Shown here: positions 17,415 through 37,344 of the stretch, in pieces | Layout: every line of letters begins with the position of its first letter | Position numbering within the stretch: position 1 is the first letter of the stretch | DNA from: Escherichia coli | Lineage (GTDB): Bacteria > Pseudomonadota > Gammaproteobacteria > Enterobacterales > Enterobacteriaceae | Strand: one strand, 5' to 3' | Length of the DNA stretch: 64,000 nucleotides | NCBI RefSeq assembly: GCF_024298765.1 | Contig: NZ_CP101211.1 | Position numbers and translations under genes: made by a program | The notes under the pieces: generated by a model | Databases searched by the model: none | Told to the model about the DNA's origin: nothing | What the model saw: the letters and a program-made list of their open reading frames with translations, nothing else

Positions 17415-17446
17415 GATTCACTCCTGAGGGCTTGACGGGTTTAGCC

Positions 17447-17480: not shown

Positions 17481-17483
17481 TCC

Positions 17484-18916: not shown

Positions 18917-19369
18917 CTAGTCTTCAATGACGTGTAAACCACGGCGCTTTAAGTCCTCTAACGAATCCAACATTCCCCTTATTAATTCAACAGGATGCCC
19001 CTCCCAGTCTTCAACAACGCCAACAATTCTCAAGGGTTCGCAGGTTCTATAGGACTGTGTTGGATTACCGGGAAATTTTTTGTTCGTAAGATTCGGATCG
19101 TCTTCGAACGGTCCTGTTGGCTCAACTATGTATATGTAGCCGCGACCCTCGAGGCCAGACAGTGACATAGCAAGTTCAGCTCCCCAAACTGCTGGCTCCA
19201 TCAAGGCTGAAAAGTAGATGTGCTTAAGAATACGACCGTCCTCGAAATGAGAGATGAACCCTGTGGTTAGCAAGTCACCAATCGCCAAATTGGCTTTGGT
19301 TCCATGATAGAACGGTCCTTGCACCTGCTTGTAATTATCATGAGAGATGGGAATCCAATCTTTTACCAT
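18917..19369 (-). CDS. arr: Rifampin ADP-ribosyltransferase Arr (arr-2 or arr-3 group)
   Basis: 150 aa from MVKDWIPISHDNYKQVQGPFYHGTKANL...; the supplied ORF extends upstream into the attC. Confidence 0.8.
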   Translation of the reverse strand: MVKDWIPISHDNYKQVQGPFYHGTKANLAIGDLLTTGFISHFEDGRILKHIYFSALMEPAVWGAELAMSLSGLEGRGYIYIVEPTGPFEDDPNLTNKKFPGNPTQSYRTCEPLRIVGVVEDWEGHPVELIRGMLDSLEDLKRRGLHVIED

Positions 19370-19399
19370 TTTAAGACCCTTAATTGTTGGGATTTGGCT

Positions 19400-19479
19400 G
19401 CATAACGTCGCTATCAATCGCGGAAAAGGCGTAGTGCGCGAAGCGAACGAAGCTTTTTGCCGTCGATTGCATAGCTTTG
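19400..19479 (-). other. attC of the dfrA cassette (approximate)
   Basis: Imperfectly palindromic stretch between the dfrA stop and arr, ending in a GTTATGC core. Confidence 0.4.
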
Positions 19480-19962
19480 TTAACCCTTTTTCCAAATTTG
19501 ATAGCAATAGTTAATGTTTGAAGTAAAGTGTTGCTCAAAAACAACTTCGAAGGTATTTGGAATACTCGGGAAGAAAACATCCCCCTCTGGCTCGATGTCG
19601 ATCGTCGATAAGTGGAGCGTAGAGGCCATGGGTAATGTTTCTCGGTAAATTTCTCCGCCACCAGACACTATAACGTGACCGGTGAATTCAGCTAGCCTGT
19701 CCATGGCCTCTTCGATTGACTGAAATACAACTACATTGTCATCATTTGATGTCCAACCTGAGCGGGTAACGACCGCGTATTTCCTATTGGGGAGTGCGCC
19801 CATAGATTCAAACGTCTTGCGACCCACCAGAAGCCACTGATTGTAGGTCAATGCTTTAAAAAGTAGCTGCTCCCCTTTCGCGGACCAGGGTATGTCTGGA
19901 CCGCAACCAATCACGCCGTTTTTCGCTTTCGCAGCCATCAATGATACTTTCAAGGTTCTCAT
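19480..19962 (-). CDS. dfrA14: Trimethoprim-resistant dihydrofolate reductase DfrA (dfrA5/dfrA14 group)
   Basis: 160-aa [58 protein letters not shown]...; first cassette after attI1. The allele is a best guess from the dfrA-arr-cmlA order. Confidence 0.7.
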
Positions 19963-19967
19963 CCTGG

Positions 19968-20040
19968 GTTAACTTTGTTTTAGGGCGACTGCCCTGCTGC
20001 GTAACATCGTTGCTGCTCCATAACATCAAACATCGACCCA
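19968..20040 (-). other. attI1 (second copy) with the GTTAACC cassette junction
   Basis: Same 5'-conserved segment as 6755-6825 but joined to the dfrA cassette. Confidence 0.6.
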
Positions 20041-20108
20041 CGGCGTAACGCGCTTGCTGCTTGGATGCCCGAGGCATAGACTGTACAAAAAAACAGTCAT
20101 AACAAGCC

Positions 20109-20553
20109 ATGAAAACCGCCACTGCGCCGTTACCACCGCTGCGTTCGGTCAAGGTTCTGGACCAGTTGCGTGAGCGCATACGCTACTTGCATTACAGTTT
20201 ACGAACCGAACAGGCTTATGTCCACTGGGTTCGTGCCTTCATCCGTTTCCACGGTGTGCGTCACCCGGCAACCTTGGGCAGCAGCGAAGTCGAGGCATTT
20301 CTGTCCTGGCTGGCGAACGAGCGCAAGGTTTCGGTCTCCACGCATCGTCAGGCATTGGCGGCCTTGCTGTTCTTCTACGGCAAGGTGCTGTGCACGGATC
20401 TGCCCTGGCTTCAGGAGATCGGAAGACCTCGGCCGTCGCGGCGCTTGCCGGTGGTGCTGACCCCGGATGAAGTGGTTCGCATCCTCGGTTTTCTGGAAGG
20501 CGAGCATCGTTTGTTCGCCCAGCTTCTGTATGGAACGGGCATGCGGATCAGTG
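20109..20553 (+). pseudogene. intI1: intI1 truncated after about 148 codons by IS26
   Basis: Same N-terminus as the 6895 copy; reading frame enters the IS26 repeat at 20554. Confidence 0.9.
20196..20224 (-). promoter_or_regulatory. Pc cassette promoter, hybrid variant (TGGACA / TAAACT)
   Basis: Identical to 6982-7010; drives dfrA-arr. Confidence 0.7.
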
Positions 20554-21373
20554 GGCACTGTTGCAAAGTTAGCGATGAGGCAGCCTTTTGTCTTATTCAA
20601 AGGCCTTACATTTCAAAAACTCTGCTTACCAGGCGCATTTCGCCCAGGGGATCACCATAATAAAATGCTGAGGCCTGGCCTTTGCGTAGTGCACGCATCA
20701 CCTCAATACCTTTGATGGTGGCGTAAGCCGTCTTCATGGATTTAAATCCCAGCGTGGCGCCGATTATCCGTTTCAGTTTGCCATGATCGCATTCAATCAC
20801 GTTGTTCCGGTACTTAATCTGTCGGTGTTCAACGTCAGACGGGCACCGGCCTTCGCGTTTGAGCAGAGCAAGCGCGCGACCATAGGCGGGCGCTTTATCC
20901 GTGTTGATGAATCGCGGGATCTGCCACTTCTTCACGTTGTTGAGGATTTTACCCAGAAACCGGTATGCAGCTTTGCTGTTACGACGGGAGGAGAGATAAA
21001 AATCGACAGTGCGGCCCCGGCTGTCGACGGCCCGGTACAGATACGCCCAGCGGCCATTGACCTTCACGTAGGTTTCATCCATGTGCCACGGGCAAAGATC
21101 GGAAGGGTTACGCCAGTACCAGCGCAGCCGTTTTTCCATTTCAGGCGCATAACGCTGAACCCAGCGGTAAATCGTGGAGTGATCGACATTCACTCCGCGT
21201 TCAGCCAGCATCTCCTGCAGCTCACGGTAACTGATGCCGTATTTGCAGTACCAGCGTACGGCCCACAGAATGATGTCACGCTGAAAATGCCGGCCTTTGA
21301 ATGGGTTCATGTGCAGCTCCATCAGCAAAAGGGGATGATAAGTTTATCACCACCGACTATTTGCAACAGTGCC
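20554..21373 (-). mobile_element. IS26 (820 bp, complete); right edge of the resistance region
   Basis: 14-bp terminal repeats at both ends. Confidence 0.95.
20606..21328 (-). CDS. tnpA: IS26 transposase
   Basis: Identical translation to the other IS26 tnpA copies. Confidence 0.95.
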
Positions 21374-23084: not shown

Positions 23085-23519
23085 ATGTCTGTTATCCTTG
23101 AGCACATTAGCAACAAGCCTTACGAAATGGCACCTTTTTTCAGTGATTTACTGAGCTGTGGAGTGATGAGTCCGTGCGCCGGGCATGAAGATAATGAATT
23201 AAATTTGCATGAATATGTAGTCCGTAACCGCCCCTCAACCTTCTTTGTCAGGGCGGCGGGCCTCAGTATGATCAATGCCGGTATCAATGATGGCGCTATT
23301 CTGGTTGTGGATCGGTCTTTAACGGCACGACACGGCTCTATCGTCGTTGCGCTGGTGGATGGAGAGTTCACGGTAAAGATCTTACACACGTATCCTGAGC
23401 TGCTTTTGATGCCTTCTAATCCAGCCTATAAGCCGATACGTGTAAATCCCGAATCCCTTGAGATATGGGGCGTCGTCACCTTTGCACTGAATCAGTTTAG
23501 CCATGTACATGCACGTTGA
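23085..23519 (+). CDS. umuD: UmuD/MucA-like S24 peptidase (error-prone polymerase accessory subunit)
   Basis: LexA-like C-terminal domain; start/stop overlap with the downstream Y-family polymerase gene. Confidence 0.8.
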   Translation: MSVILEHISNKPYEMAPFFSDLLSCGVMSPCAGHEDNELNLHEYVVRNRPSTFFVRAAGLSMINAGINDGAILVVDRSLTARHGSIVVALVDGEFTVKILHTYPELLLMPSNPAYKPIRVNPESLEIWGVVTFALNQFSHVHAR

Positions 23520-24762
23520 TATTAACGGGGCCTATGCGGCATTTGAGTGTGCGATGGATCCCAAGCTGGCAAAAAAGCCGCTCATCATAGCCAGCAATAA
23601 CGATTCGTCCGTCATTGCAATGAATAAACTGGCTAAAAGCGTTGGTATTAAGCGTGGGACCCCAATTTTTAAGTGCAGGGATTTGATTCAGCAACACCAG
23701 ATCGAAGTCCGGAGCTCTAACTTTACTTTGTATGAAGACTACTCAAATCGCTTCCATGAAACGCTGGAAAGCTTCGCGCCTCAATCGAGTCGATATAGCA
23801 TAGATGAAAATTTCATGTTATTGAAAAACATGAACAAGATAATAGATTATGAAGATTACGGCCGGTTGATCAGAAGTACACTTCTTCATAATCTGTCCCT
23901 TACCTGTGGTGTGGGGTGTTCAAGCACCAAAACCCTGGCTAAATTATGCACCTATGCGAGCAAACGATGGGCAGCTACAGGCGGGGTTGTAGTTTTGACT
24001 GATCAGGCCAGGATCAGGAAGCTCCTGGGCCTTATCAGTACCAGAGAAATATGGGGTATTGGTCAAAAGATCAGTGAACGCCTGTCGGCTTTCGGGATCA
24101 TCACTGCCGGTGATTTTTATAATAGCGACGTTCGCTTTTTACGTAAAAGCTTTGGCGTTGAAATCGAGCGTACCTGGCGGGAACTGCATGGCGAACCATG
24201 TTTCCGGCTGCATGAATCCCCTCCTGTCCGGCAACAGATTATCGTTTCCAGAAGTTTTGGTCAGCGCCTTAATGAGATAGGCAAGCTACATGAGGCAGTT
24301 TCATTTTTTACCGCCCGGGCGGCAGAGCAGCTGCGCAAGGATGGCTCGTGGACCCGTCAAATCACAGTCTTCATTCAGAGCAGCAATTATGCGCAAGGTG
24401 AAAACCGCTACAGCAATTGTGGTATCGAGCCGCTTACCGCTACACAGGACACCCGCGATCTGGTTGATGCAGCCATGACCATCCTGAACCGCATTTACAA
24501 ACCCGGGATAGCGTATGCGAAAGCTGGGGTAATGCTCTCCGCTATGACTGACGGCACAGAGCAACTCAGCCTGTTTGATGAGCGCCCGGCCAGGCCTGGC
24601 AGTCAGGCACTGATGAAAGTTATGGACCGGTTCAATAAAGAAAAGCGCGGAGCTCTGTTTTTGCTGGGGGAAGGCATTCAACAGGATTTTCGTATGAAAC
24701 AGGCCATGCTATCACCGAGATATACGACCCGCTGGGATGAATTACTCGTTGTAAAAGCGTAG
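23503..24762 (+). CDS. umuC: UmuC/MucB-like Y-family DNA polymerase
   Basis: 419-aa ORF starting ...HVDINGAYAAFE... with a typical Y-family layout. Confidence 0.8.
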   Translation: MYMHVDINGAYAAFECAMDPKLAKKPLIIASNNDSSVIAMNKLAKSVGIKRGTPIFKCRDLIQQHQIEVRSSNFTLYEDYSNRFHETLESFAPQSSRYSIDENFMLLKNMNKIIDYEDYGRLIRSTLLHNLSLTCGVGCSSTKTLAKLCTYASKRWAATGGVVVLTDQARIRKLLGLISTREIWGIGQKISERLSAFGIITAGDFYNSDVRFLRKSFGVEIERTWRELHGEPCFRLHESPPVRQQIIVSRSFGQRLNEIGKLHEAVSFFTARAAEQLRKDGSWTRQITVFIQSSNYAQGENRYSNCGIEPLTATQDTRDLVDAAMTILNRIYKPGIAYAKAGVMLSAMTDGTEQLSLFDERPARPGSQALMKVMDRFNKEKRGALFLLGEGIQQDFRMKQAMLSPRYTTRWDELLVVKA

Positions 24763-24781
24763 CGGCCATGACCGGCATGGC
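24761..24781 (+). terminator. Hairpin between convergent umuC and the DsbA-like gene
   Basis: GCGGCCATG-accgg-CATGGCCG stem-loop; no clear T-tract. Confidence 0.35.
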
Positions 24782-24807
24782 CGTACTCATCAAAAGTGAA
24801 AGTAACT

Positions 24808-25617
24808 TTAGGCCCCGCGAGCTTTTTCGATTGCGCCCTGCAAAGTTGCTGCGTCCATAGCCCCGGGGATAAATGTGGTAGTCGCCGCATTCGGCTTTTT
24901 CATATTCATAATGATGAAGCCGGGTGTGCCGGTGATCCCAAGCGCTTCGCCCAGCTGCATGTTGCCGGAGATCACGTTTTCATATCGGTTTTTTTCCCTG
25001 TCAGAAAACGTGCTGTTAAACCCTGACTTATCCACCACAGTATTAAAGTCGCTGAGTTCGAATTTGCGTTGAGAGGTCATGAAGGTATGAGCCACAGCCA
25101 TCAGGTTGTTGTGGTATTTACGATAGGCTTCAGCACCGAAATTCTGATAGACGTGCAGACCCGTAGCGGCCCCCATGGCAGATACAGGTTTTGAACCGGC
25201 AAAAATCGGGAATTCTTTAAAGAAGAATTTTACATCTTTGCTCTGATTCATTACCGATTCAACAACAGGTGTAACCCGCATGCAGTAAATACACTGATAG
25301 TCGAAGAACTCGATTACCGCGACGTCGGCGTCATCCGGGCCGATGTTTGGCGTCTCCTTGGTATCCAGCAGAGCTGGCGCATATGGAATTATTCGTTCCA
25401 CTGAGGCACTTACGTTCTGATTTTCCAGCGCCTTACCTGCTTCCACTAAATAATGGGGATTTTTTACCAGGTAAGTAGCGGCAATTTTGCCAATTTCTTC
25501 CTCACTGAGCACCTTCGGTTTAAAATAAGTTGCCGCGATTAACGCCGAGGCAGCGGTAGCAATTACCGCAGAAATTAAAATCGTGGCCATCGGTTTTAAA
25601 TAAAATTCTTTAGACAT
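24808..25617 (-). CDS. DsbA-like thiol:disulfide oxidoreductase (thioredoxin fold, CIYC motif)
   Basis: N-terminal membrane or signal segment plus a CxxC active site (FFDYQCIYCM). Confidence 0.65.
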   Translation of the reverse strand: MSKEFYLKPMATILISAVIATAASALIAATYFKPKVLSEEEIGKIAATYLVKNPHYLVEAGKALENQNVSASVERIIPYAPALLDTKETPNIGPDDADVAVIEFFDYQCIYCMRVTPVVESVMNQSKDVKFFFKEFPIFAGSKPVSAMGAATGLHVYQNFGAEAYRKYHNNLMAVAHTFMTSQRKFELSDFNTVVDKSGFNSTFSDREKNRYENVISGNMQLGEALGITGTPGFIIMNMKKPNAATTTFIPGAMDAATLQGAIEKARGA

Positions 25618-25723
25618 AGCTACCTTTATGCTTTTCAGCCTGTTAGTTATTAACCTGCGATGGATTATACTGGCCCGGTAAATCGGAATTATTCGTGAAA
25701 CAATGCTTTTTGGAGATTAAAGG

Positions 25724-26335
25724 ATGATTAGGCAGGGCTTTATACTCACAACCGCAATGCTTTTGAGTGGTTGTGGATATCATTTCGCAAACCAGGTAGA
25801 TGCGTACGATCTAATGCCTCGTCCTGTTACAAATAAAAGGTTTCAGATAGTCCCTCCGGACGAAAGTATTCAGTCCAGAATGTTTTCAGGCCGTTTTGCT
25901 GATGGATTAGCAAAAAAAGGAGTCATTATTTCCACTCACCAGCCAGATTATGTGCTCAGGTTCCGAATGAGCAGCTCACAGGAGAACATGCAGTATAGCG
26001 AGCAGCTTCTTACTGGGGTGACAGGCTACGTTGTAGATAAAAAGACAACGAGAACTGACAAGCATGGCGAATCGCATACTGACTATGACTACAGGCCGGT
26101 CGATGGGGTAATAGGCACTGAGACGATGTCGCAGATGCACTATATGCGACAGCTGGATGTCGAGGTATACCCGTCAGCGAAAGGAGCAAAGCAGGTTCTG
26201 AAAGTGAGTATGCAAAGCAATGCACCTGTGCCGTCAGACAGCATTGCTTATTCAGCAATGATCGACGCCTTTACTGATAAATTTGATGCGCCGCTGCGTT
26301 CCGGAAATTATGTTGCAGTGATCCCCTGGAACTGA
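25724..26335 (+). CDS. Hypothetical lipoprotein
   Basis: Lipobox LLSGC near the N-terminus. Confidence 0.55.
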   Translation: MIRQGFILTTAMLLSGCGYHFANQVDAYDLMPRPVTNKRFQIVPPDESIQSRMFSGRFADGLAKKGVIISTHQPDYVLRFRMSSSQENMQYSEQLLTGVTGYVVDKKTTRTDKHGESHTDYDYRPVDGVIGTETMSQMHYMRQLDVEVYPSAKGAKQVLKVSMQSNAPVPSDSIAYSAMIDAFTDKFDAPLRSGNYVAVIPWN

Positions 26336-26394
26336 AAGCAGACGGCGGGAAGAGAATGTTCAAAAGTGACTTTTGGACACGCACATAAACGTGG

Positions 26395-26817
26395 CTATCG
26401 CCCTCCCCCATTAAAATCATAAAGTCGGTAAAGATCGCCCATCGTGATGGAATTGGGCTTATTAATGATTAGATACTGTAACTGTTCTTTATGTTGAGTA
26501 CTGGCGGCTGCATTCATAAGCACTTCCAGGTAGAACTTGTAGCCTATGCTTCGCTCTGAATACATATACTGGAACTGCATCAGTAAAATGCCTGACATAA
26601 CATACAACAGCAGCAGACTGAGTAACACAGTGCTATCAGGCTGTTCCAGTGCCATACTGACATACCCTGAACCCAGAATGCACAGAAGCCAACCCGTCAT
26701 TAGAGCAGGCACCCTACGACTCAGACGTTCATAACAACGTTTTATTACGGGATCCCGGAGATACTTTTTGTCAGGTATCCCCGTTGCCCTGATGACGAAG
26801 TTACTGAGTATCGACAT
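26395..26817 (-). CDS. Hypothetical membrane protein
   Basis: Hydrophobic segments; 140 aa. Confidence 0.45.
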   Translation of the reverse strand: MSILSNFVIRATGIPDKKYLRDPVIKRCYERLSRRVPALMTGWLLCILGSGYVSMALEQPDSTVLLSLLLLYVMSGILLMQFQYMYSERSIGYKFYLEVLMNAAASTQHKEQLQYLIINKPNSITMGDLYRLYDFNGGGR

Positions 26818-26850
26818 CTTTTTTCCTTCTGGACGCTCTCAGTCAATAAA

Positions 26851-27249
26851 TCAGGCCAGGCGCTCATTGAAAGCTACCACGAGCTGCGAATCGGGATTTT
26901 TTACCAGTTCGGGCCGGATAACTTTTAGTTGCCTCGTTGGGGCGAGCTCATCTGTAGGCCTGATGGTGGTATTACCCGGCCCCTTGCGGGTACTGTCGGT
27001 GTTTACCTTGAGCTTTTTATTTCCCAGGTAGCTTTCCATCTTTTTAGAGATGGTGTCACCTGTGGTCGCAACACCAGAGAGTTCCTTTAGTTGTTCACCT
27101 TGATCCATTTGTACCGATGACATCAGAAATACGATTCCTGGATCGTTTTCCGTTCCACAGGCTCCGTACTGACATTGTGCAGCGAAAACGGGCTGTACAC
27201 CTACAGCAACCAGCATTAACGTACTCAGTAAAGTAGATTTCATACACAC
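26851..27249 (-). CDS. Hypothetical secreted protein
   Basis: Signal-like MKSTLLSTLMLVAVGVQPVFA; sits directly downstream of the DsbC-like gene. Confidence 0.5.
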   Translation of the reverse strand: MCMKSTLLSTLMLVAVGVQPVFAAQCQYGACGTENDPGIVFLMSSVQMDQGEQLKELSGVATTGDTISKKMESYLGNKKLKVNTDSTRKGPGNTTIRPTDELAPTRQLKVIRPELVKNPDSQLVVAFNERLA

Positions 27250-27262
27250 CTCTTACAGTCGG

Positions 27263-27275
27263 AAAAGTTACTTTT
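27263..27275. repeat. 13-bp palindrome AAAAGTTACTTTT (backbone motif copy)
   Basis: Exact copy; overlaps the DsbC-like stop codon, 14 bp before the next gene start. Confidence 0.8.
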
Positions 27276-28017
27276 GCGCAGCGCCCATTTGGGTCACCAG
27301 GTTTTCCGGGCTCAGCCACCCCGTAAATAACTGCGGTTTGCCGCTTAGTGTCACCATGGTAGGAGTACCTTGCAGCGGGATTGTTGAGGCCACCTGGAAA
27401 TGCGATTTGATAATGTTTAAGCAAGCCTCATCAGGACGTCCTTCCGGGATAGTTGAAACCGGATTCATCGCTGCATCCAGAGCTTCGTTTGGCTTTGCTG
27501 AACACCAGATTTTGGCCATGTTCCCGGCTACTACCGAGTTCAGTCCTGCACGTGGGAATGCAAGAAACTTAATCGAAATACCGGCATCAAGATAAGACTT
27601 CAGATCATGATGCAGTTTTTGGCAGTATCCACAGGTTATATCGGTAAAGATAGCAAGCCGGTATTTTTCGTTTGGTGATTTGTAGTCGATGGATTTTGTT
27701 TTGGATGCGAATTCCCGGACGCCCATTAAAATGGCCTGCTCAGTGGTGTTTACCACATCTTTACCTTTCACGTGGAATAAGCTTCCGGTAAAAATGTAAT
27801 CTCCGTCTTTGCTCACGTAACTTACCCCCTCCCTGGAAATCACCGTAAAAATATCTTTTACTGGCGAGGGTTCGACGTGCTCGATTGAAAGCCCAATGGC
27901 TTTGAGCTTATCCCGGGCTGCATCTGGCAGTACCATTGTATTAACCGGCTCGGCATTCATCGTGAAGGCGGTACTTAATGAAAGAAGTAATACCGATGCC
28001 TTAATAATTTTTTTCAT
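27268..28017 (-). CDS. DsbC-like disulfide isomerase (CGYC motif)
   Basis: Signal peptide, dimerisation-type N-domain and a thioredoxin domain with CGYC. Confidence 0.7.
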   Translation of the reverse strand: MKKIIKASVLLLSLSTAFTMNAEPVNTMVLPDAARDKLKAIGLSIEHVEPSPVKDIFTVISREGVSYVSKDGDYIFTGSLFHVKGKDVVNTTEQAILMGVREFASKTKSIDYKSPNEKYRLAIFTDITCGYCQKLHHDLKSYLDAGISIKFLAFPRAGLNSVVAGNMAKIWCSAKPNEALDAAMNPVSTIPEGRPDEACLNIIKSHFQVASTIPLQGTPTMVTLSGKPQLFTGWLSPENLVTQMGAAQK

Positions 28018-28164
28018 TTATGCTCCTTGAATCGAGCACTAATATTATCACGCCCAAAAATTCCAGAATTTTGCTTAAACGCTTAAATCAACGGGTAAAG
28101 CCGAAAGAAAGTCGATAGATATATGGGAGAATAGATAAAACGTAGATTCAGTGGAGAAATCGTT

Positions 28165-28704
28165 GTGTTTACACCACCAGCAGATGATGTGAAACCTATT
28201 CCCGTTCCTGATGAGATTTACACTCAGTGCATTACGGATGCCGCCCGCTTCTTCGGAATTGATGCCGAACTGGTTTTTACGTTGTTTGACAATGAAGGCG
28301 GTAAGGTTGGTACTTTCAGCAGGAATACTAACGGCACTTATGATATTGGCCCGATGCAGATCAACTCATCCAATCTGCCTGAAATAAAAAAGCATTTCCC
28401 GACTGTAACGTGGCGGGTTCTGGCTTACGATGCTTGCGCTAGTTTCTGGGTTGGAACATGGTGGCTCTACAGAAAAATTGTTGATCGCAAGGGCAATGTG
28501 TTTGAAGGGATTGCAGATTACAACAGCAAAACCCCAAAGGTACGTGCAAAGTACATATTTAACTTCATGGTAAAGTACAATCGCCGGATCCAGCAGCGTA
28601 ACGGGATGGGTGAGCTTTATCAATGGACCCAACAACCTCCTCGATACAATGGCCATATAGCTAAAAATGTCCCGGAGCAAAACCCGACTCCTGTTGTTAA
28701 ATAA
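28165..28704 (+). CDS. Lytic transglycosylase-like protein (transfer-associated)
   Basis: SLT-like motifs (GPMQIN); size and position typical of a conjugation-associated transglycosylase. Confidence 0.55.
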   Translation: MFTPPADDVKPIPVPDEIYTQCITDAARFFGIDAELVFTLFDNEGGKVGTFSRNTNGTYDIGPMQINSSNLPEIKKHFPTVTWRVLAYDACASFWVGTWWLYRKIVDRKGNVFEGIADYNSKTPKVRAKYIFNFMVKYNRRIQQRNGMGELYQWTQQPPRYNGHIAKNVPEQNPTPVVK

Positions 28705-28786
28705 ATTCAACCTGATATTACAGAAGATCATCGAGTAGCTTGGGTACCCCCCCGCAAAAAATTCGCATAGACTCAGGGGTAATAAA

Positions 28787-29353
28787 TTGTCTTTTTCTGC
28801 AAGAAATATATTTAAGATTCTCTCTTCTTTCTTGATGCAGAAAAGCCCTCTTCATGAAGAAGTATGTGTTCCTGAAGAAACAACAGCTGGTTTATGGGGC
28901 CCTCTCCCTGATTCGCATGTCGTGCTTTTCTTAGATTTCGATGGGGTTTGTCACAGGTGCAAAAATGAAACCTTTGAGCGAATGCCATTGGTGGAAAAAT
29001 TACTGGATAAATGCCCTTCCATGGTGATTGTCATCTCCAGTTCGTGGCGTGAATGTGCCAGTATAACTTACCTGAAATCTCTTTTCCGGCTACCTTATAG
29101 AGACAAAGTCATAGGTGCTACCGATTCGGTATATTTAAAACCTAATCAGTCAGGTGTGCGGGCTGCTGAGTGTGAGGACTTTGTATTTTCACATCGAGTT
29201 AAAGCATTTATCTGCCTTGATGACGACGAATCATTATTCCCGGTCGGTTATCCACATTTGCAAAAAACCAATTATTACACCGGCCTCACCGAATCTGATC
29301 TTGCAGCTCTTAACACCAGGTATCATCTGCTTATGAAACGTTGGGCTTCCTGA
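28787..29353 (+). CDS. HAD-like hydrolase-fold protein, function unknown
   Basis: VLFLDFDGV matches HAD motif I (DxDG). Confidence 0.45.
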   Translation: MSFSARNIFKILSSFLMQKSPLHEEVCVPEETTAGLWGPLPDSHVVLFLDFDGVCHRCKNETFERMPLVEKLLDKCPSMVIVISSSWRECASITYLKSLFRLPYRDKVIGATDSVYLKPNQSGVRAAECEDFVFSHRVKAFICLDDDESLFPVGYPHLQKTNYYTGLTESDLAALNTRYHLLMKRWAS

Positions 29354-29460: not shown

Positions 29461-30750
29461 TTAAGCTTGCTGCTCAGTTTGGTTCCGGTGCTGAAAAACC
29501 TGCCAACGGTGCTTTAGGAATTCAGTATTGATGGGTTTACGCAGCGGCTTAATAAACTCTCCTTGATATGCCGCTAAATCATGATCTACCGCCAAAGCTT
29601 CAGCGAGAATGTTAACCTCCAACGTCACCGGATGAATGGCAATCATGTTTGCGTCGAAAAGATCGTGTATATCATGGCGTAAGAGCAACCCATTTGTATA
29701 ATGGTCTACTCCTCCGTTACGATGCTCCATCAGATGAGCAGCCTCAGTGCGCTGGCGCAGTCTAGAGCCTGTAATCACACATTGGTCATAACAGTTGTTG
29801 CGGACGGCTTCTGCAAATGAGGCCTGATCTGGTCGTGTCTCGACAGTTGTCTTACTACCCTTACGCTTACCCGGTACAGTAGTTTCATCAGGAATATTCG
29901 GCTGAAGCTCCTTTTCTTCTATACCATCAGTCTTCATAGCGACCATAATCGCGGCCGGTGGAGATTTAGGCTGATCTTCCTGCGATCTTTCGCGGCCACC
30001 AACTGGATACCCTAGAAAACCCTCAATGATCTCTAGTGGAGGTAATGTAGCGTTTGAACGTGCATAAATAGCGAACTCTGCGGCACGTCCGCCGGGAATA
30101 TATCTACGTACCAGTATTGGAAGAGAGGCTTCTTCATCTGGTTCCTCTTTTTCCGACAGGATTATTCGTTCGGTGAGACGGGCTGAATTTTTTTTCATTT
30201 CACTCAACAGTCTATTGCGTTCTTTTACCTTTCGGTCATTATCCTCCAACATCTTACGATGACTAACCTTAGCCAGATGGTCTTCCAGTTCCTGTATATA
30301 TTCGGGATCGATAGTATCAATTAGACCGAACGCCATCAACCGCTCCCCCCTTGTTTTACAAGATTCTAGCCGAACGCGAATGTACTCCTTACGCTTGGCC
30401 ATCAAATGTTCTTTTTGTTTTTTTTCTCGAATTACACGGAGCTGAGTATTGTAATTAGAATAAACGGTTTCGCTATTCTGCTCTGTCTCTAGAGCAAATT
30501 TTTGTAGGTGTTCACGTAGTTTTTTACGGGTATTTTTGGGGGCATGCATTACGGTACGCTCAATGTATGAGCCTGTGCAGCGTAAAGAAAGTACAGTTTC
30601 AGCATGGGAATAACCAGCATTGAGACGATAGCGGGCAATTTTAAGCAAATTATTAAAGTGTGCACCATTACATATACCTAGTTCTTCCAAGACACGACGT
30701 TCTCTATCATTAATAGATGGATGGTTAATATCTTTTACTTTGTTTGCCAT
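29461..30750 (-). CDS. HNH-endonuclease-domain protein with a long charged N-terminal region
   Basis: C-terminal CYDQCVITG...AHLMEHRNGGVDHYTNGLLLRHDIHDLFD is an HNH-type motif; the N-terminal 300 aa are Lys/Glu/Arg-rich. Confidence 0.6.
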   Translation of the reverse strand: MANKVKDINHPSINDRERRVLEELGICNGAHFNNLLKIARYRLNAGYSHAETVLSLRCTGSYIERTVMHAPKNTRKKLREHLQKFALETEQNSETVYSNYNTQLRVIREKKQKEHLMAKRKEYIRVRLESCKTRGERLMAFGLIDTIDPEYIQELEDHLAKVSHRKMLEDNDRKVKERNRLLSEMKKNSARLTERIILSEKEEPDEEASLPILVRRYIPGGRAAEFAIYARSNATLPPLEIIEGFLGYPVGGRERSQEDQPKSPPAAIMVAMKTDGIEEKELQPNIPDETTVPGKRKGSKTTVETRPDQASFAEAVRNNCYDQCVITGSRLRQRTEAAHLMEHRNGGVDHYTNGLLLRHDIHDLFDANMIAIHPVTLEVNILAEALAVDHDLAAYQGEFIKPLRKPINTEFLKHRWQVFQHRNQTEQQA

Positions 30751-30930: not shown

Positions 30931-33900
30931 CTACCTTTTATTTTCATTAAGCCACTGATCCGCTTTATCGACACGTGACTGGTAAGGCTCATTTGTGTTG
31001 CTCAGCTCTGACTTCATGTACTGAATGAATTCATCTGCTTTCTGAGGCCCAAAGCGTGGGTCATCCGTCAATTGCTGCCGGATAGCCCTTTCAGAGTTCT
31101 GCGCTGCATTCGCATAAGTCGAAACGCCGTCGCTGCTAATACTCTGATACCGGTCACTTACAGCTGCGACGCCATCAGACATCTGCATGTGATTAAGGAC
31201 TTTACCCTGGAGAGAATCAGGCATATTTGCAGGGTTAGAGGCATCATTTGCTATCGATGTCTGGGTTTGAAGGATGCCCGCTCCCGTAAGCATCTCATTT
31301 ACCGGTTTCGCCCCAACGCTGGTTAGCGTATCCGAAACAAATTGCTGGCCCCCGAGTAGCGCACCAGAAATCGCGCCCCGCTCAGTGTTGGCCTCTATCT
31401 TTTCCCCAACCAAGCGATCTGTGACGGTCTGAGTGCGGTTACCAACGAGACCACCGCCCGACCCACCCTCTCCTAGGTTTGCCCGTACGACTGACTCAAG
31501 TGAACCATCAGCTCTGTTATGAGTGTTGAAACTGCTATGGATGCTCTGAACGTCATTCATACTCCAGTTAACGTTATAGTTACCCAGTTCATTAAGGATC
31601 TTCTGGGTATCCGCTTTGAGCTGCTCTCTTTCGGCACCGGTAGCCATGGTGCTGGCACCATAGGTAAAGACAGCTTGCTGTGCCAATTCAGCTCGCTTAT
31701 CGTCCCGGCTTAAGTTCGGGTTGTTGGCAACACGACTAAAGTAGTTATCAGTGTTATTAGATAAGCCACGAACTTGACCGCTCTGATACATACTGTTCAA
31801 AGCAGTGGCTCGTTGATCCATTCCATCACCAACCACCCGACCTCCGGTAGCCTTTTCCAGATCGTTAAATGTGCCTTCTGCATTTCTGACATCCTGACCT
31901 GAATTGACGACTTTCTCTACACCCTGATTATTCAGTACAGGGCCATTCGTTTTGAGAGAATTGAGCACATTCCTTTCTTCATCAGAATAAGTGCGGCCCA
32001 CGTTGTTGTTATGTATTCCCTGAATATCGCCTTTGCCCGCGTTATCAAGGTTATACGGAGTAAAGCCAGCTTCACTTTTTCCAGGGACACGCTGAGTCGC
32101 GTCCTGAGCGTTGGAGGAAAGACCGAGTTTAGCCTGCGAATCAACACTTCCACCCAGTTCCCCTACGCGTGACGCACTCATCACGCCAGACGTATTTACG
32201 CTGTCAGGAGTTCTATCCTGTGCCTGAGTGATAGTATTAATTCCTGACCCTTCGCCTGAAATTCTGTCGAGCTGATTGGTGATAGGTAGCAGCTGCTGTG
32301 CATTACCACCGAAGTCGGAAACCAGACTTTTAAGCAGGCTGGAGGTTTCACGGAGATCCTGTTTATTACTTTCGGCCGTCTCTCCCCGGGCGGTATCAAT
32401 CGCAATTTTTTGCTCACTGAAATCTCGTGTTGCAGCCACAAGCGCGTCAGTACGTTGAAGCTGCGAACCAAGCTGATTACTGGCCTTGAAGGTATCGTTA
32501 TAGGAGTTGAATTTCTCCATAAACGCATTCTCATCCAGCCCATTCTTACGAGCAAAATTCCTTACATCATCATCACTGAAGTTTTTGTTGCGAATAGAAT
32601 CGGAGAACCTGTCCAGGTTAATGCTTTGTTTAGAATCAAGGCTCATTCCACTATTGGAGCTGGCGTTAGTCGATACCGATGTAGAAATGTTTTGCGCCAT
32701 CGTCTGTGTCGCCTGGTTCATTTTCGACGATGCTTCTTTAAACGCATTAGTATTGGATATCTGATCGCTGCTTACCTGAGACGCCGCTTTACTGAACTGG
32801 TCAGTCAAAGCAGAATCCTGGCTAAGCTGATTCGTGATTGCTTTTGAAAGGTCATTTGAAAGCGAGTCACTGCCTGTATTGGTCTTAGATGCGCCGCTAC
32901 TCAATTGCCCTGCTACAGCTGCTTTCAGCCCGGCTCCGTTGCCAGTTCCAGCACCTCCATTAAGCCCAGCGTTTAGAATAACATTTGAAGCAATGCTGGC
33001 CATCTGAGACGCACTCACCCCATGTTTCGTTGCAATACCTTCTGCTACAGAGGCACCAATCTTATCCGAGATCTGCTTCATTGTTTGCAGGTTGGTTGAG
33101 AACTGCTGGCTCGACTGTCCTGACCTTCCAATTTCACTCATCTGACTGTAACCAGCCTGGAATGAATTACTTGCCGCACTCATAACTGATGAGGTTACAG
33201 CTGATCCTTGCCCCTGGCTGTTAGCGATACTTGAACCAGCATTCCACATTCCAAGACGGAAATTACTTGAATCAACTGCGCCGCCATCGCTGTATCCCTG
33301 ACCGGTACTGGTCAAGGCGGTTCGTGTCACGTCACCAAATGAAGATTTACCGCTGTTAGGGCCATCCCATACTTTGGGCGTTACATGACCAGTATCCACC
33401 GGCGCATCGGGGGTCACTCCCTTAACCGCATTCATCATCGGGTGAATCGACTGTGTCATCAGGAATAATGTGAGTACCGGAATCAGAGCATAAAGCGCGG
33501 AAGCAACAGACAGGTATGAACTGTATGTTTCCGCAAGCCCTGGGAGCCCCATCCACGTGACGGCATTATTCTGGCTGTTGAGGGTGCTCCAGGTATCCAG
33601 ATCGGCCGTCGCGACTTTCTTCACATACGCGTTGACCATTACTGCCGTAAGCGGCCACATATTCACGAAGAGAATAAGTTGCAAATATTTCGCCGCAGCG
33701 GCAACACCATTACCACCTAACGCCAGCAGCATAAGCAAAGCAAATGGAGCAACCATGTAAGCAAACATCTCAAGGAATGCGATTGCTGCTCCAGACAGTT
33801 GTAACCACAACTGGCCCTGTGAAGCCATTGTGTTGGTTCGCTTCAGAGAAGCCTCAAACAACTGCATATCGGAAGCCAGACCGAGTGGGGTCTTATATTT

Positions 33901-34884
33901 GCTTGCGCCATTTCTGAGCTCATTCATTATGAACAGGTTCAGGGTGGCGTCATACGAACCAATAGCCTTACCGTACATACCATTTGCTGACGCCATAACA
34001 TCAGTAAAACTTGCGCCGGTAGGTGCACCATTTGCTTCGTCTGGAGTAAGGATGCCGTTTGTCTGTCCTATAAGGGAAATAGTCTGGCGAGCTTCAGCTG
34101 TACTGGTAACCTGTTTCACAGTTGACCAGACCTCATCACACGTACCAGATTTTGAACCGTTAGCGCCAACAATACTGGCAGAGGCATTCTTCAGTGCGCC
34201 TTTCATCGCCTGATTAATCCGGTCCATGCTATCTGCCAGATTAGCTGAGAAAATATCGTTAAAAATAGTTTCTTTACCGGCAATATTTGCGCTTGAGTTT
34301 TGGGTAGCCTTCAGGCAGTTGTATGCAAGAGACTGAACGGTAGCACATACGTTCATTGGCCCTAGCCCGCTGGCCGGTTCAGGAAATGCAGAACAGTAGC
34401 CCTGGCTATCGCCGCCCCATTGCAAAAACTTCACGAATCGGATCATCGGACCGAGGGTGATGTCATCGTCCAGAGTTGTTGCAGACAGGTCCACCGGAGA
34501 AAGCGGATCAAACGCAGTTTTATAATCCTTCAGCAAACCCTGGCTTAAGTTAGTGGTGACGGTGGCCATCGCAGCAATAAAAATTGGAATTCCGTCGACG
34601 TTTCTGACCTCTCCCGACTTTACAGATTCAATAGTTACATCCACTCGAACCATTGCCATCATGAAAAGGATCAACCCCAAAAACCAGGAGAAAAACGGTA
34701 ATTCATTTTTGGTCGGAGCCTGAAGCCATAGCCACGTTTTATAGAATAGGCTCACACCTGCTACAACGGCGGCCGTGGTCAGGAACTCTTTTACACCAGT
34801 ATATTGAGAAAAGATTAGGGCAATACCGGTAAAAGCCGACCAGACAAAATCAATATCACCCAGGGTATATATGTTGTAATCCAT
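30931..34884 (-). CDS. trhG: F/H-type conjugative transfer protein TraG/TrhG (mating-pair stabilisation, large inner-membrane protein)
   Basis: 1317 aa, polytopic N-terminal half and Ser/Gly/Asn-rich periplasmic region; follows traH. Confidence 0.7.
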   Translation of the reverse strand: MDYNIYTLGDIDFVWSAFTGIALIFSQYTGVKEFLTTAAVVAGVSLFYKTWLWLQAPTKNELPFFSWFLGLILFMMAMVRVDVTIESVKSGEVRNVDGIPIFIAAMATVTTNLSQGLLKDYKTAFDPLSPVDLSATTLDDDITLGPMIRFVKFLQWGGDSQGYCSAFPEPASGLGPMNVCATVQSLAYNCLKATQNSSANIAGKETIFNDIFSANLADSMDRINQAMKGALKNASASIVGANGSKSGTCDEVWSTVKQVTSTAEARQTISLIGQTNGILTPDEANGAPTGASFTDVMASANGMYGKAIGSYDATLNLFIMNELRNGASKYKTPLGLASDMQLFEASLKRTNTMASQGQLWLQLSGAAIAFLEMFAYMVAPFALLMLLALGGNGVAAAAKYLQLILFVNMWPLTAVMVNAYVKKVATADLDTWSTLNSQNNAVTWMGLPGLAETYSSYLSVASALYALIPVLTLFLMTQSIHPMMNAVKGVTPDAPVDTGHVTPKVWDGPNSGKSSFGDVTRTALTSTGQGYSDGGAVDSSNFRLGMWNAGSSIANSQGQGSAVTSSVMSAASNSFQAGYSQMSEIGRSGQSSQQFSTNLQTMKQISDKIGASVAEGIATKHGVSASQMASIASNVILNAGLNGGAGTGNGAGLKAAVAGQLSSGASKTNTGSDSLSNDLSKAITNQLSQDSALTDQFSKAASQVSSDQISNTNAFKEASSKMNQATQTMAQNISTSVSTNASSNSGMSLDSKQSINLDRFSDSIRNKNFSDDDVRNFARKNGLDENAFMEKFNSYNDTFKASNQLGSQLQRTDALVAATRDFSEQKIAIDTARGETAESNKQDLRETSSLLKSLVSDFGGNAQQLLPITNQLDRISGEGSGINTITQAQDRTPDSVNTSGVMSASRVGELGGSVDSQAKLGLSSNAQDATQRVPGKSEAGFTPYNLDNAGKGDIQGIHNNNVGRTYSDEERNVLNSLKTNGPVLNNQGVEKVVNSGQDVRNAEGTFNDLEKATGGRVVGDGMDQRATALNSMYQSGQVRGLSNNTDNYFSRVANNPNLSRDDKRAELAQQAVFTYGASTMATGAEREQLKADTQKILNELGNYNVNWSMNDVQSIHSSFNTHNRADGSLESVVRANLGEGGSGGGLVGNRTQTVTDRLVGEKIEANTERGAISGALLGGQQFVSDTLTSVGAKPVNEMLTGAGILQTQTSIANDASNPANMPDSLQGKVLNHMQMSDGVAAVSDRYQSISSDGVSTYANAAQNSERAIRQQLTDDPRFGPQKADEFIQYMKSELSNTNEPYQSRVDKADQWLNENKR

Positions 34885-34892
34885 GTCAGACC

Positions 34893-36308
34893 TCAGTTAC
34901 GTGTGCCACGAATACTTTCAGTGAAAGCCTTCCGTTGCAGGCGACGGTTATCCCAGGTTGAAATGACGTCCGAGCTGGTACCGACCTGGCTGTGCGATAG
35001 CTCATAGGCGGCTTTAACCTGTTTTGAGAGATTGTCTGTTAATCGGTTGAGATCATCCCTTTTACCCGACAGCGACTCACTCGGTATGCTCATGGTTGAA
35101 ATTTTGGCCTCAACCTGGCGCAACATGTTGATTACGAGGCTCGTCGCAGCAATAGTGCTTATGTCCTGAATGTATGCGTACCCTTCCGGTGCTTCGAATG
35201 TTTGCAAAGAGTCGATAATGGTCGGGATGCCGATATAGGAGATAATGCGTAATTCATCATCTGAAACACGAACGTCGTTGATGATTTTTTTCTGTACGTT
35301 TAAAAGAAGATCAGAAATGGTATCCTTCAATCCCTTAAAACCACCGTCATTAACTTCTGACATGACAAGGCACTGAGCCTTTCGTGGGGATGATGGATCT
35401 GGTGCCGGAGAACACTTGAGCATTTTAATTGATCCGCCAGCTGGTGGCCCCATGATGTAATCCGTGACAGTCATGGTAGACGGGCGGACTTCCATTCCCG
35501 CTTTTTCGCCTTTGCTATCCCAGTTGATAATGACAGTACCCACGAGAGACATAAGTTGTTCTGCCAATTTATAACCGGATAACTCCGTTACCCCTCCGAT
35601 GTTCATTGTTCCCTTATCAATATCCATGAACGACATATAGAAGAGGTTACCACTGAATTTTTCAGCGAACTCTTCGGGATCCTTTGCTTTAACCTGAGAA
35701 GTGACAGCTTCAGGTGACTTTGTCATCGATGAGCCAAAATCAGGAATGAGACCATTAATCGATCCCAGAATTGAGGCTGGTCCAGAGCTAACTGAGTTAG
35801 CGAACTGGCTTGGCGTACCCACGTTTTCAGAAAGGAAAGAGTAAGTTGCATTGCATGAATCTTTCGCAAATTTATTTAGCGCTTGCAGTTTGTTTTGGAT
35901 GTCATTAATCGTTGCAGCACAGTCAGCACAAATAGCTGAAACAGCAACGTTAAAAGCATAGATAGCCGCACCCTGGGCAATACCACGGGCCACCTGCACA
36001 AGCTGGTCCCCGTTGATCATGCTGAAGGACCCAAGAAAAACGTCAATACCATTACAACCGACAGAAGCTTTTGGAAACGACATGGAAACAAGGTTGGTAT
36101 TAACGTTTGTTGTTCGGTAAGACATTGACCCGCCAACTATGCCTGTACGGGTTGCTGTGGAAAAGGTGGCCGGGCTGGTAGACGTCATCATGCCATTGAA
36201 AATGTTACGCATTGCGTTGTCTGCATTTGCAGTCGGGGCTAAAATTGCAGCACAAACAGAAAGAGACAAAAGTAACTTTTTGAAGTTGAAAACGGCATTA
36301 CTGCGCAT
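34893..36308 (-). CDS. trhH: F/H-type pilus assembly protein TraH/TrhH
   Basis: Signal peptide MRSNAVFNFKKLLLSLSVCAAILAPTANA (start taken at the Met at 36308); about 470 aa. Confidence 0.65.
   Translation of the reverse strand: MRSNAVFNFKKLLLSLSVCAAILAPTANADNAMRNIFNGMMTSTSPATFSTATRTGIVGGSMSYRTTNVNTNLVSMSFPKASVGCNGIDVFLGSFSMINGDQLVQVARGIAQGAAIYAFNVAVSAICADCAATINDIQNKLQALNKFAKDSCNATYSFLSENVGTPSQFANSVSSGPASILGSINGLIPDFGSSMTKSPEAVTSQVKAKDPEEFAEKFSGNLFYMSFMDIDKGTMNIGGVTELSGYKLAEQLMSLVGTVIINWDSKGEKAGMEVRPSTMTVTDYIMGPPAGGSIKMLKCSPAPDPSSPRKAQCLVMSEVNDGGFKGLKDTISDLLLNVQKKIINDVRVSDDELRIISYIGIPTIIDSLQTFEAPEGYAYIQDISTIAATSLVINMLRQVEAKISTMSIPSESLSGKRDDLNRLTDNLSKQVKAAYELSHSQVGTSSDVISTWDNRRLQRKAFTESIRGTRN
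36270..36282. repeat. Backbone palindrome copy AAAAGTAACTTTT, inside the trhH 5' coding region
   Basis: Exact copy encoding FNFKKL of the signal peptide. Confidence 0.75.
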
Positions 36309-37344
36309 AAGTGCCTCCAAAACTGCCGCCAGCATTGAGATAATTGACCGGATCGGCCGTAGGCATGTCATAGCCTTCGAGTTTTTGGTCCATTATTTTT
36401 TGAAGTAAGAATGGGTCTGATTCCATTTCGGATTTATTAACGGTAATAACGCCATCATCACCGATGGTATATTGCCTTTTAATATCTAGAGTTGACTGAA
36501 ACGAAGCGTCATCGATCAGATTCATGCCCTTCGCGGCAAGTATAATAGTGTTCTTTAATTCATCAGCGGAGATCATGCCTTCACTAATGCGCTGAGCTGA
36601 TGTCCCATCCTTTGAAACCAGGAAAATTGTAGGTACCTCTCGAATTTTAAATTGATCAATAATTTGTGCATTGGGGATGTTAAAATCCTGAAAAAGGCCA
36701 TTATGCAATGGCCTTCCATCCATACTGATTGGAAGAATATCTACCGAATAATAGTTCTGCATAAATTGAAGTATTTGGCTCTCTTCGTGGCAAAACTGGC
36801 AAGTACTCTGGAAAAAGAAAAATAAACCTGACTTAGTAAAGATATCTTTCATTACCGTTTGCTGATTTTTTTCAACAACAGTGCGGTGAGCATCCAGTGC
36901 CACCTTTTCCACTGGTTGCCTGCGTTTTTCAGACATCATCGGGTTTTTAAGAAAATAATCTTTTGATTTGTCAGAAAAACGCGTACTGATATCCAGCATT
37001 AACCTTTGCGCCGTGTAATAACGTGATAGATTTTCTGCGGTAGGGTTATCCATTGCCTGCGTTAACAGTCGAGGAATATTCTCTTTTAGCCATTTTGAAT
37101 TTAAATCTACCTTTTCCTCTTTTGAAGGCGAGCTAGCAGCACCGGTTGGTGGCAAAACCTTTTCTTCTTCAGCTTCGCTTTTTTTAGCAGGATCGTCATA
37201 CCAGAAGAAACCCTTCTTATAAGCCTGGCCTGATACAAAGGGCGTATCTTTTATTAGGGGTTGCTCAGGGCTGGCGTGGGCACCAGTAATTACCAAAGAC
37301 ATAAGCAAAACCATCTTTGAAGGCGCTAATGCAATACGAGTCAT
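36298..37344 (-). CDS. trhF: F/H-type pilus assembly protein TraF/TrhF (thioredoxin-like, CQFC)
   Basis: Signal peptide and a thioredoxin-like C-terminal domain with CQFC; first gene of the traF-traH-traG operon. Confidence 0.6.
   Translation of the reverse strand: MTRIALAPSKMVLLMSLVITGAHASPEQPLIKDTPFVSGQAYKKGFFWYDDPAKKSEAEEEKVLPPTGAASSPSKEEKVDLNSKWLKENIPRLLTQAMDNPTAENLSRYYTAQRLMLDISTRFSDKSKDYFLKNPMMSEKRRQPVEKVALDAHRTVVEKNQQTVMKDIFTKSGLFFFFQSTCQFCHEESQILQFMQNYYSVDILPISMDGRPLHNGLFQDFNIPNAQIIDQFKIREVPTIFLVSKDGTSAQRISEGMISADELKNTIILAAKGMNLIDDASFQSTLDIKRQYTIGDDGVITVNKSEMESDPFLLQKIMDQKLEGYDMPTADPVNYLNAGGSFGGTYAQ

Follow-up and report, generated by a model that had tools for sequence, protein, structure and literature searches.

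Plasmids of the IncHI group are already known to carry disulfide bond (Dsb) enzymes of their own: DsbC-type isomerases serving transfer have been described since 2005, the 'dsbA' annotation dates back to the R27 sequence itself, and the co-regulation of this gene with transfer was described in 2020. Elton et al. 2005 are said, in their abstract, to name trhF, dsbC and htdT as the three thioredoxin-fold genes of R27, and DsbC(R27) and HtdT, but not TrhF, reportedly rescue the dithiothreitol (DTT) hypersensitivity of mating. The present analysis concerns a stretch of 64,000 nucleotides (nt) of Escherichia coli DNA (NCBI RefSeq assembly GCF_024298765.1, contig NZ_CP101211.1), hereafter the window, and in it two genes designated ORF A and ORF B (ORF, open reading frame; Table 1), whose products resemble DsbA and DsbC, respectively. 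It appears fairly likely that both belong to a conserved IncHI backbone module, located beside the transfer region Tra1, which supplies periplasmic disulfide catalysts to the MPF_F mating apparatus and the H-pilus. Such a module is an ordinary feature for H-group plasmids. What is added here is the predicted BcfH/ScsC-type nature of ORF A, the lack of a DsbB or DsbD membrane redox partner on the plasmid, and the recurrence of the ORF A type of enzyme as the terminal gene in some F-type tra operons. A published statement linking R0135, the R27 counterpart of ORF A, to BcfH was not found in the literature covered, which was incomplete.

Comparable enzymes are known from other elements. TrbB of the F plasmid and HtdT of the IncHI Tra2 region are thioredoxin-fold isomerases with a CXXC motif encoded inside MPF_F transfer operons, TrbB having no dimerisation domain, unlike ORF B. 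IncA/C elements carry an analogous gene, DsbP. In F, TraH relies on DsbA for disulfide formation and on TrbB for isomerisation (PMC7555446), and the efficient transfer of Rts1 and SXT requires Orf206 and s054, respectively, even if the host is dsbC+ (PMC10838148). As regards pili and fimbriae, SrgA of the Salmonella virulence plasmid is a DsbA-superfamily enzyme dedicated to the plasmid-encoded Pef pilus (PMC8405906), and the trimeric oxidase/isomerase BcfH of Salmonella has a part in the biogenesis of fimbriae (PMC8405906, PMC11653150). BcfH and the trimeric ScsC types act as isomerases/reductases or as dual oxidase-isomerases. An earlier note on this DNA, made from the sequence alone, had tied the possession of Dsb genes to H-type plasmids. 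Such genes are indeed found on IncHI plasmids, but analogous genes also occur on the IncT plasmid Rts1, SXT, F and some IncF plasmids.

An IncHI2A backbone module with two Dsb enzymes

Region 24000-29000 of the window matched 1009 plasmid records, 999/1009 of which are typed as conjugative, and it is 100% identical across many large conjugative plasmids of Escherichia, Salmonella, Enterobacter and Klebsiella. One of the full matches, pSTM6-275 (275.8 kb), is typed as IncHI2A with a MOBH relaxase and an MPF_F mating-pair system, in agreement with the H-type plasmid proposed in the earlier note. The gene order reads umuD, umuC, the dsbA-family gene (ORF A), small ORFs, the thioredoxin-fold gene (ORF B) and a lytic transglycosylase gene, and continues with a HAD-domain gene, an HNH gene, trhG, trhH, a TraF-like gene (trhF), and the oriT region with mobI and the MobH relaxase gene. 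The Dsb module is flanked by umuDC and Tra1, and its two enzymes are encoded about 3 kb from trhG/trhH/trhF, near the pilus genes as had been claimed. Both ORFs also lie on the minus strand at the positions first assigned to them, with a CIYC motif in ORF A and a CGYC motif in ORF B.

ORF B has the architecture of R27 DsbC and E. coli DsbC, with a signal peptide, a DsbC_N domain (Pfam PF10411; 51.6 bits, cut-off 25, residues 32-89), a thioredoxin domain (Pfam Thioredoxin_2; 59.8 bits, above the curated cut-off) with CGYC at 129-132, a second cysteine pair (C172 and C199) and a Thr-Pro loop (GTP). Its N-terminus, MKKIIKASVLLLSLSTAFTMNA/EP, is of the Sec type, the n-region being basic and the hydrophobic core 14 residues long (cleavage sites of ORF A, ORF B and TrhF were judged by eye). 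It aligns over its full length with E. coli K-12 DsbC (33% identity, E 7e-46), including the dimerisation domain, the identical CGYC, the second cysteine pair and the Thr-Pro loop, and its full-length matches in the PDB include the DsbC structures of Yersinia (4NPB, E 1.2e-43) and E. coli (1EEJ, E 8.4e-37). The label DsbC-like is therefore well founded. Because its score against the NCBIfam DsbC equivalog NF008129 (178.3 bits) lies below the cut-off of 215, ORF B is a paralogue and not the housekeeping DsbC. It further differs from E. coli DsbC by a mature N-terminus about 10 residues longer, and its gene comes first in a unit of three, the other two encoding small proteins specific to IncHI. 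Rts1 Orf212 (23% identity over the N-terminal 146 amino acids, aa) and DsbP (E 3.7e-12) are distant from it. ORF B may be an isomerase kept reduced by DsbD, as the R27 dsbC phenotype in a dsbC-null host and the lack of a plasmid DsbD indirectly suggest.

ORF A contains only two cysteines, C109 and C112 of the CIYC motif, and matches the Pfam DSBA domain (PF01323) with 72.2 bits (E 6.5e-20), above the curated cut-off. Its closest PDB sequence match is BcfH (7JVE, Subedi et al. 2021, Antioxid Redox Signal 35:21; E 1.5e-35, 31% identity over 236 aa), followed by Francisella DsbA1 (FtDsbA1), the trimeric ScsC proteins of Proteus and Caulobacter and a 27-kDa outer-membrane protein homologue, and then by Salmonella ScsC and Wolbachia DsbA2 (WpDsbA2). 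The AlphaFold2 (AF2) model, built from 39 homologues with a predicted local distance difference test score (pLDDT) of 87.8, consists of a hydrophobic helix, helices 39-52 and 54-83, and a thioredoxin fold with an inserted helical domain. When this model was compared with the PDB using Foldseek, BcfH chains ranked 1-6 (best E 7e-20) and ScsC chains 7-18, the relatives after BcfH being trimeric ScsC, FtDsbA1 and WpDsbA2; E. coli DsbA (EcDsbA) was not among the top 50 matches. At the sequence level, EcDsbA and ORF A align only in a 30-residue stretch at the active site (E 0.003), and ORF A shows neither the overall similarity, nor the CPHC-type dipeptide, nor the extension-free N-terminus of the classical EcDsbA type. 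The description of ORF A as DsbA-like thus holds for the superfamily, through the DSBA domain, but not for classical DsbA. Sequence and predicted fold place ORF A with BcfH and the trimeric ScsC-type enzymes.

Like BcfH, ORF A has an N-terminal helical extension, an aromatic third residue in the CxxC motif (CSWC in BcfH) and a G-T-P loop (G230-T231-P232), and the genes of both adjoin a pilus or fimbria assembly system. They differ in that BcfH belongs to a chromosomal chaperone-usher fimbrial operon, whereas ORF A lies on a plasmid beside a type IV secretion system, and in that the N-terminus of ORF A is longer, hydrophobic and possibly uncleaved. With trimeric ScsC (Proteus mirabilis 4XVW/5ID4, Caulobacter 7RGV), the model of ORF A would share the catalytic fold and an N-terminal oligomerisation-type region. 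By comparison, SrgA, which has CPPC, is a monomeric DsbA paralogue of the classical kind, unlike the BcfH/ScsC type. The extension ahead of the thioredoxin fold spans about 45 residues in the AF2 model and is 4 residues shorter than in the relatives that carry the ScsC_N domain; this domain passes its Pfam cut-off in a 63%-identical relative (26.4 bits) and does so strongly in relatives with ~40% identity. Invariant positions in the family alignment comprise FDY-C-x-x-C, P137-I138, H169, the G230-T231-P232 loop and P54 of the N-terminal helix. The active-site cysteines of ORF A and ORF B align with those of solved Dsb structures.

The export of ORF A depends on a 24-residue uncharged hydrophobic run (residues 9-32), modelled as a helix at 7-31. 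This segment may serve as a signal peptide, with cleavage after A23-S24-A25, or it may stay uncleaved as a membrane anchor; since both readings entail export, the catalytic domain would be exported in either case. Short signal peptides ending in AQA occur in remoter relatives and none such was seen in the IncHI clade of the family alignment, and the sequence leans slightly towards an uncleaved anchor. Export signals and aligned active-site cysteines, the lack of which would have spoken against the earlier proposal, are present in both proteins.

The order SLT (lytic transglycosylase), dsbC-like, orf132, orf140, lipoprotein, dsbA-like and umuCD is common to IncHI2 and one IncHI1A plasmid, and the IncHI1A order agrees with the R27 numbering in PMC7366339, where R0126 is trhF, R0130 is 'bfpH, trbN-like' and R0135 is 'dsbA, outer membrane protein'. 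Comparison of IncHI2 with IncHI1 gave 84% aa identity for ORF B (nonsynonymous divergence, dN, 0.099) and 75% for ORF A (dN 0.157), with saturated synonymous divergence (dS) in both cases, 57% for orf132 (dN 0.332, dN/dS 0.19) and 45% for orf140 (dN 0.513, dN/dS 0.21). All four genes are under purifying selection. Both Dsb proteins occur at >=95% identity in roughly 940 plasmids (the IncHI2 tier), and a second tier with both proteins, probably IncHI1, comprises 266-296 plasmids. Among plasmids with an ORF A-family homologue, 2463/3232 are typed as conjugative. A more distant arrangement was found in a Klebsiella IncHI1B/IncFIB plasmid. There, the HAD gene is kept together with a dsbA-like gene of 43% identity, the dsbC-like gene has been truncated by IS1, and two small ORFs are unrelated. 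A disruption of the module by IS1, considered for two plasmids, was dismissed in the one examined, where IS1 has inserted in the SLT/HAD interval and left the Dsb genes untouched.

These data bear on whether the Dsb genes might be functionless passengers, redundant with host DsbA and DsbC and retained by linkage. The wild-type host is unaffected by an R27 dsbC deletion (PMC10838148), as would be expected of passengers. The low dN of the two Dsb genes (0.10-0.16) at saturated dS between IncHI1 and IncHI2 reflects strong purifying selection, however, the active sites show no variation, about 1,200 plasmids carry the genes with intact reading frames, and the one IS1 insertion examined is intergenic. 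This explanation is very improbable.

Evidence for a probable role in conjugation

A pilus role for the Dsb proteins, as put forward in the earlier note, is the best-supported reading, on the basis of the R27 dsbC deletion phenotype (PMC10838148) and of R0135 co-induction (PMC7366339). In a dsbC-null host, deletion of R27 dsbC made conjugation ~10^4-fold lower, as quoted in PMC10838148. Judging by gene order and domain architecture, ORF B most likely has its R27 orthologue in this 'dsbC'. In the R27 expression data of PMC7366339, R0135 'dsbA' was induced 3.4-fold and R0130 3.1-fold at the permissive temperature of 25 C, both were induced in an htdA mutant too, and R0135 was induced under all conjugation-promoting conditions.

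Relatives of ORF A were also found in other transfer systems. On F-type plasmids, a relative with ~40% identity and a ScsC_N domain is the last gene after traD-traI, 25 nt past traI, and a terminal gene combining ScsC_N and DSBA was located in three IncF-type loci (L007:8001-8789, L009:5839-6627 and L004:7914-8702). An IncFIB/IncFII plasmid likewise carries an ORF A relative between the tra region and repA, and another relative shows no obvious linkage to conjugation. No mention of a terminal ScsC_N and DSBA gene in the tra operon was found in the F-like conjugation review PMC7555446.

Candidate substrates are found among the mating-pair formation (Mpf) proteins. On the IncHI2 backbone, TrhN has 32 cysteines and TrhU 16; together with TrhH, these are likely clients of the plasmid Dsb enzymes, and TrhG is a possible one. 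Because mating proteins carry up to 32 cysteines, disulfide catalysis would be a real bottleneck for the transfer of IncHI2 plasmids, which are of major importance in carrying resistance to multiple drugs, colistin and metals. In the mechanism envisaged, ORF B would act as a dimeric DsbC paralogue that corrects wrong disulfides in the cysteine-rich TrhN, TrhU and TrhH and backs up host DsbC. ORF A, which the N-terminal helices probably make oligomeric and which may be anchored in the inner membrane, would serve this assembly pathway too, as oxidase, isomerase or both; its oligomeric state, redox direction and substrates are those that we infer. Host DsbD (reduction) and DsbB (oxidation) would recycle both plasmid enzymes, and the expression of ORF A and ORF B would track that of the transfer genes.

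Several observations weigh against this scheme. Deletion of R27 dsbC had no phenotype in a wild-type host (PMC10838148), and the contribution of R27 dsbC may be conditional. The function of R0135 is called unknown in the same paper. The ORF A gene lies between umuDC and a lipoprotein gene, outside any tra operon. Its match to Pfam ScsC_N (residues 40-67) reaches 18.1 bits, below the cut-off of 25.8. FtDsbA1 has a comparable N-terminal extension, yet is a monomeric oxidase (PMC11653150), and the extension alone is therefore no proof of oligomerisation or isomerase activity. Rts1 Orf206, which PMC10838148 lists as an R0135 homologue, was considered as proof for the ORF A family and set aside: the similarity is limited to 54 aa around the active site, the best PDB match of Orf206 is Pseudomonas DsbA2, and it offers an analogy only.

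The confinement of the R27 dsbC phenotype to hosts without DsbC (PMC10838148) would also suit a general host-range insurance, in which the Dsb genes support exported plasmid cargo (the Ig-like RSP adhesin, resistance enzymes) or weak-Dsb hosts. IncHI plasmids are spread over many Enterobacterales genera and encode other cysteine-bearing exported proteins, such as RSP with 8 Cys. This explanation, which overlaps with the conjugation role and is not strictly exclusive of it, is nonetheless held to be unlikely, given that the Dsb genes adjoin Tra1 and the SLT transglycosylase gene and are co-induced with tra genes, and that the largest cysteine loads are borne by Mpf proteins. In a further, rather unlikely variant, ORF A is a membrane-tethered, trimeric oxidase/isomerase resembling protein-disulfide isomerase, which would free IncHI pilus assembly in part from the need for host DsbA, and perhaps also the folding of disulfide-dependent plasmid cargo such as MCR-type enzymes or beta-lactamases. 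In that case, the enzymes of this type that end some F-type tra operons would represent a widespread, overlooked accessory class of MPF_F systems. If a BcfH-like ORF A did substitute for host DsbA, it would blunt DsbA-inhibitor strategies against conjugation or resistance.

The kinship of ORF A with ScsC raises another question, namely whether it might be an ScsC-like reductase for envelope stress and copper defence, guarding periplasmic thiols and playing no part in conjugation. The ScsC proteins of Proteus, Caulobacter and Salmonella are among its best sequence and fold matches, the sub-threshold ScsC_N match points the same way, and a matching IncHI2 plasmid carries the copper/silver clusters sil and pco. 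These clusters lie on a Tn7-like element ~25-50 kb from the module, however, and a copper role based on this linkage was discarded. ScsC pairs with the DsbD-like ScsB in copper tolerance; the context of ORF A is conjugation, and tblastn found no DsbD homologue on the whole plasmid, a ScsB-specific query not having been run. The ORF A gene is part of the backbone, syntenic beside Tra1 in the IncHI1 plasmid examined, its R27 orthologue is co-regulated with transfer genes, its relatives terminate F-type tra operons, and the fimbrial BcfH outscores every ScsC as a match. A copper-defence function is improbable, and a conjugation role for ORF A remains preferred.

Redox partners and other thioredoxin-fold proteins

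The thioredoxin-fold complement of the plasmid extends beyond ORF A and ORF B. A CQFC-bearing TraF homologue, reported in the earlier note, was recovered as TrhF, which matches TIGR02740 (TraF-like) with 327.6 bits (cut-off 232.25) and has a Sec-type N-terminus (...LVITGAHA/SP). The earlier count of thioredoxin-fold proteins was too low, since Tra2 encodes a fourth CXXC protein, HtdT, whose CDGC aligns with the CGYC of ORF B (24% identity between the two proteins). At E<=0.01, HtdT had no match in Pfam. The N-terminus annotated for it (MAKAKEGGVSPSQ...) shows no signal peptide, and its start codon may be misannotated.

The notion that the plasmid brings its own disulfide machinery is correct for the periplasmic catalysts but does not extend to their membrane partners. 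With EcDsbB and EcDsbD as tblastn queries (E<=1), neither the window nor the complete pSTM6-275 (275.8 kb) gave a match, ScsB- and CcdA-specific queries not having been run; the dsbC-like gene and the umuDC genes were recovered as positive controls. As the plasmid is without DsbB and DsbD, its catalysts would depend on host DsbB and DsbD for recycling, in line with the need for DsbD reported for TrbB of F (PMC7555446). The small protein orf140 was considered as a plasmid DsbB- or DsbD-like partner and rejected, for it has at most two hydrophobic segments, one cysteine conserved between IncHI1 and IncHI2, and no family matches.

Neighbouring genes and other features of the window

The features discussed are collected in Table 1. 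The dsbC-like gene, orf132 and orf140 form one unit, with gaps of 24 and 33 nt and a Shine-Dalgarno (SD) sequence on each gene, convergent with the lipoprotein gene lipo203. The ORF A gene is monocistronic, divergent from lipo203 (106 nt) and convergent with umuC (45 nt). A hairpin in the latter gap may serve as a shared transcription stop, although a scan with a consensus terminator did not flag it. A sigma-70 consensus scan of 24600-28400 returned 0 promoter-like sites, against 6.7 +/- 2.7 expected from shuffles, and gave no information on operon starts. This suggests that the promoters of the module are non-consensus, as would fit regulation by H-NS, HtdA or temperature.

Table 1. Positions of the Dsb genes and of associated features; coordinates are those of the window, except for HtdT.
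Feature	Position	Strand	Description
ORF A	24808..25617	-	predicted exported oxidoreductase of the DsbA superfamily, BcfH/ScsC type; 269 aa; R27 R0135 'dsbA' orthologue
ORF B	27268..28017	-	plasmid DsbC paralogue; 249 aa; Sec signal peptide, DsbC_N, thioredoxin domain with CGYC
TrhF	36298..37344	-	TraF-like pilus-assembly protein, thioredoxin fold; 348 aa; CQFC at 182-185
TrhH	34893..36308	-	exported Mpf protein; 7 Cys, one in the signal peptide and 6 mature
TrhG	30931..34884	-	TraG N-terminal family; 4 Cys clustered at residues 164-249
HtdT	7234-7986 of the pSTM6-275 Tra2 locus, outside the window		between trhB and trhV; annotated protein-disulfide isomerase
SLT/TrbN-like lytic transglycosylase	28165..28704	+	divergent from ORF B; orthologue of R27 R0130 'bfpH'
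orf132	26851..27243	-	small secreted protein; 130 aa from ATG; 24 nt downstream of the dsbC-like gene
orf140	26395..26817	-	third gene of the dsbC-like operon; starts 33 nt past the orf132 stop; SD sequence
lipo203	25724..26335	+	lipoprotein, lipobox LLSG-C17; R27 R0134 counterpart; 106-nt upstream region shared with ORF A
Hairpin	24763..24783		perfect 8 bp, CGGCCATG-ACCGG-CATGGCCG; within the 45-nt umuC/ORF A gap; read directly from the sequence
HNH-endonuclease-domain ORF	29461-30750	-	429 aa; HAD gene/trhG interval

Among the small proteins of the module, orf132 occurs on IncHI-type backbones only and had no Pfam or NCBIfam match. Directly past its signal peptide, at the mature N-terminus, it has an invariant C24-x4-C29 loop (C-Q-[YF]-G-[AS]-C), and it ends in an invariant C-terminal block (LKVNTDSTRKGP...DELAP.RQLK.IRPELV). 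The protein may be a disulfide-bonded client or partner dedicated to the plasmid DsbC. A Klebsiella small protein with a post-signal C-x4-C was compared with orf132 as a possible remote homologue and rejected, BLAST returning nothing and hhalign a probability of 0.6%. The orf140 product, with a strong hydrophobic segment at 60-83 and a weaker one at ~36-56, is probably an inner-membrane protein, judging by its sequence. Its C28 is not conserved in IncHI1, a single cysteine being kept, and it had no Pfam or NCBIfam match. In pSTM6-275, the annotation of orf140 is shortened to 261 nt.

The lipo203 family is likewise restricted to IncHI-type backbones, with one member matching DUF4136, and G16-C17 is invariant across it. 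The AF2 model (pLDDT 87.3) combines an alpha/beta domain with a very long beta-hairpin (strands 86-111 and 117-150), and Foldseek revealed a weak likeness (TM 0.3-0.5) to ring-forming outer-membrane lipoproteins, namely PelC, CsgG, TraT (F surface exclusion) and LptE. RefSeq lists lipo203 at full length for IncHI1, whereas in its IncHI2 records an internal start reduces it to a fragment of 116-122 aa. The lytic transglycosylase scores 23 bits against Pfam SLT and 81.7 bits, below the cut-off, against NCBIfam TrbN. From its annotated GTG start, it has no recognisable signal peptide (N-terminus VFTPPADDVKPIPVPDE...), though its substrate is periplasmic.

In E. coli K-12, dsbB is convergent with umuC and lies 45 nt past the umuC stop, and on the plasmid the dsbA-like ORF occupies the same position at the same 45 nt. 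Plasmid and K-12 UmuC share 47% aa identity (window 23085-25617 compared with the K-12 locus). A common ancestry of the two layouts was rejected, as DNA similarity is confined to umuC and the downstream proteins are unrelated, and the match is probably a coincidence. The HNH-endonuclease-domain ORF occupies the interval between the HAD gene and trhG in IncHI2 and is absent there in the one IncHI1 plasmid examined. Upstream of the module, at ~13000-21300 (placed by correspondence to locus L001, 9019-17311), lies a resistance cargo made of tet(A)/tetR followed by a class 1 integron (intI1, dfrA12, aadA2, qacEdelta1) with sul1, the 3' end of which is overlapped by IS26. This high-GC cargo accounts for the jump in GC content to 0.61-0.62 at 14-18 kb.

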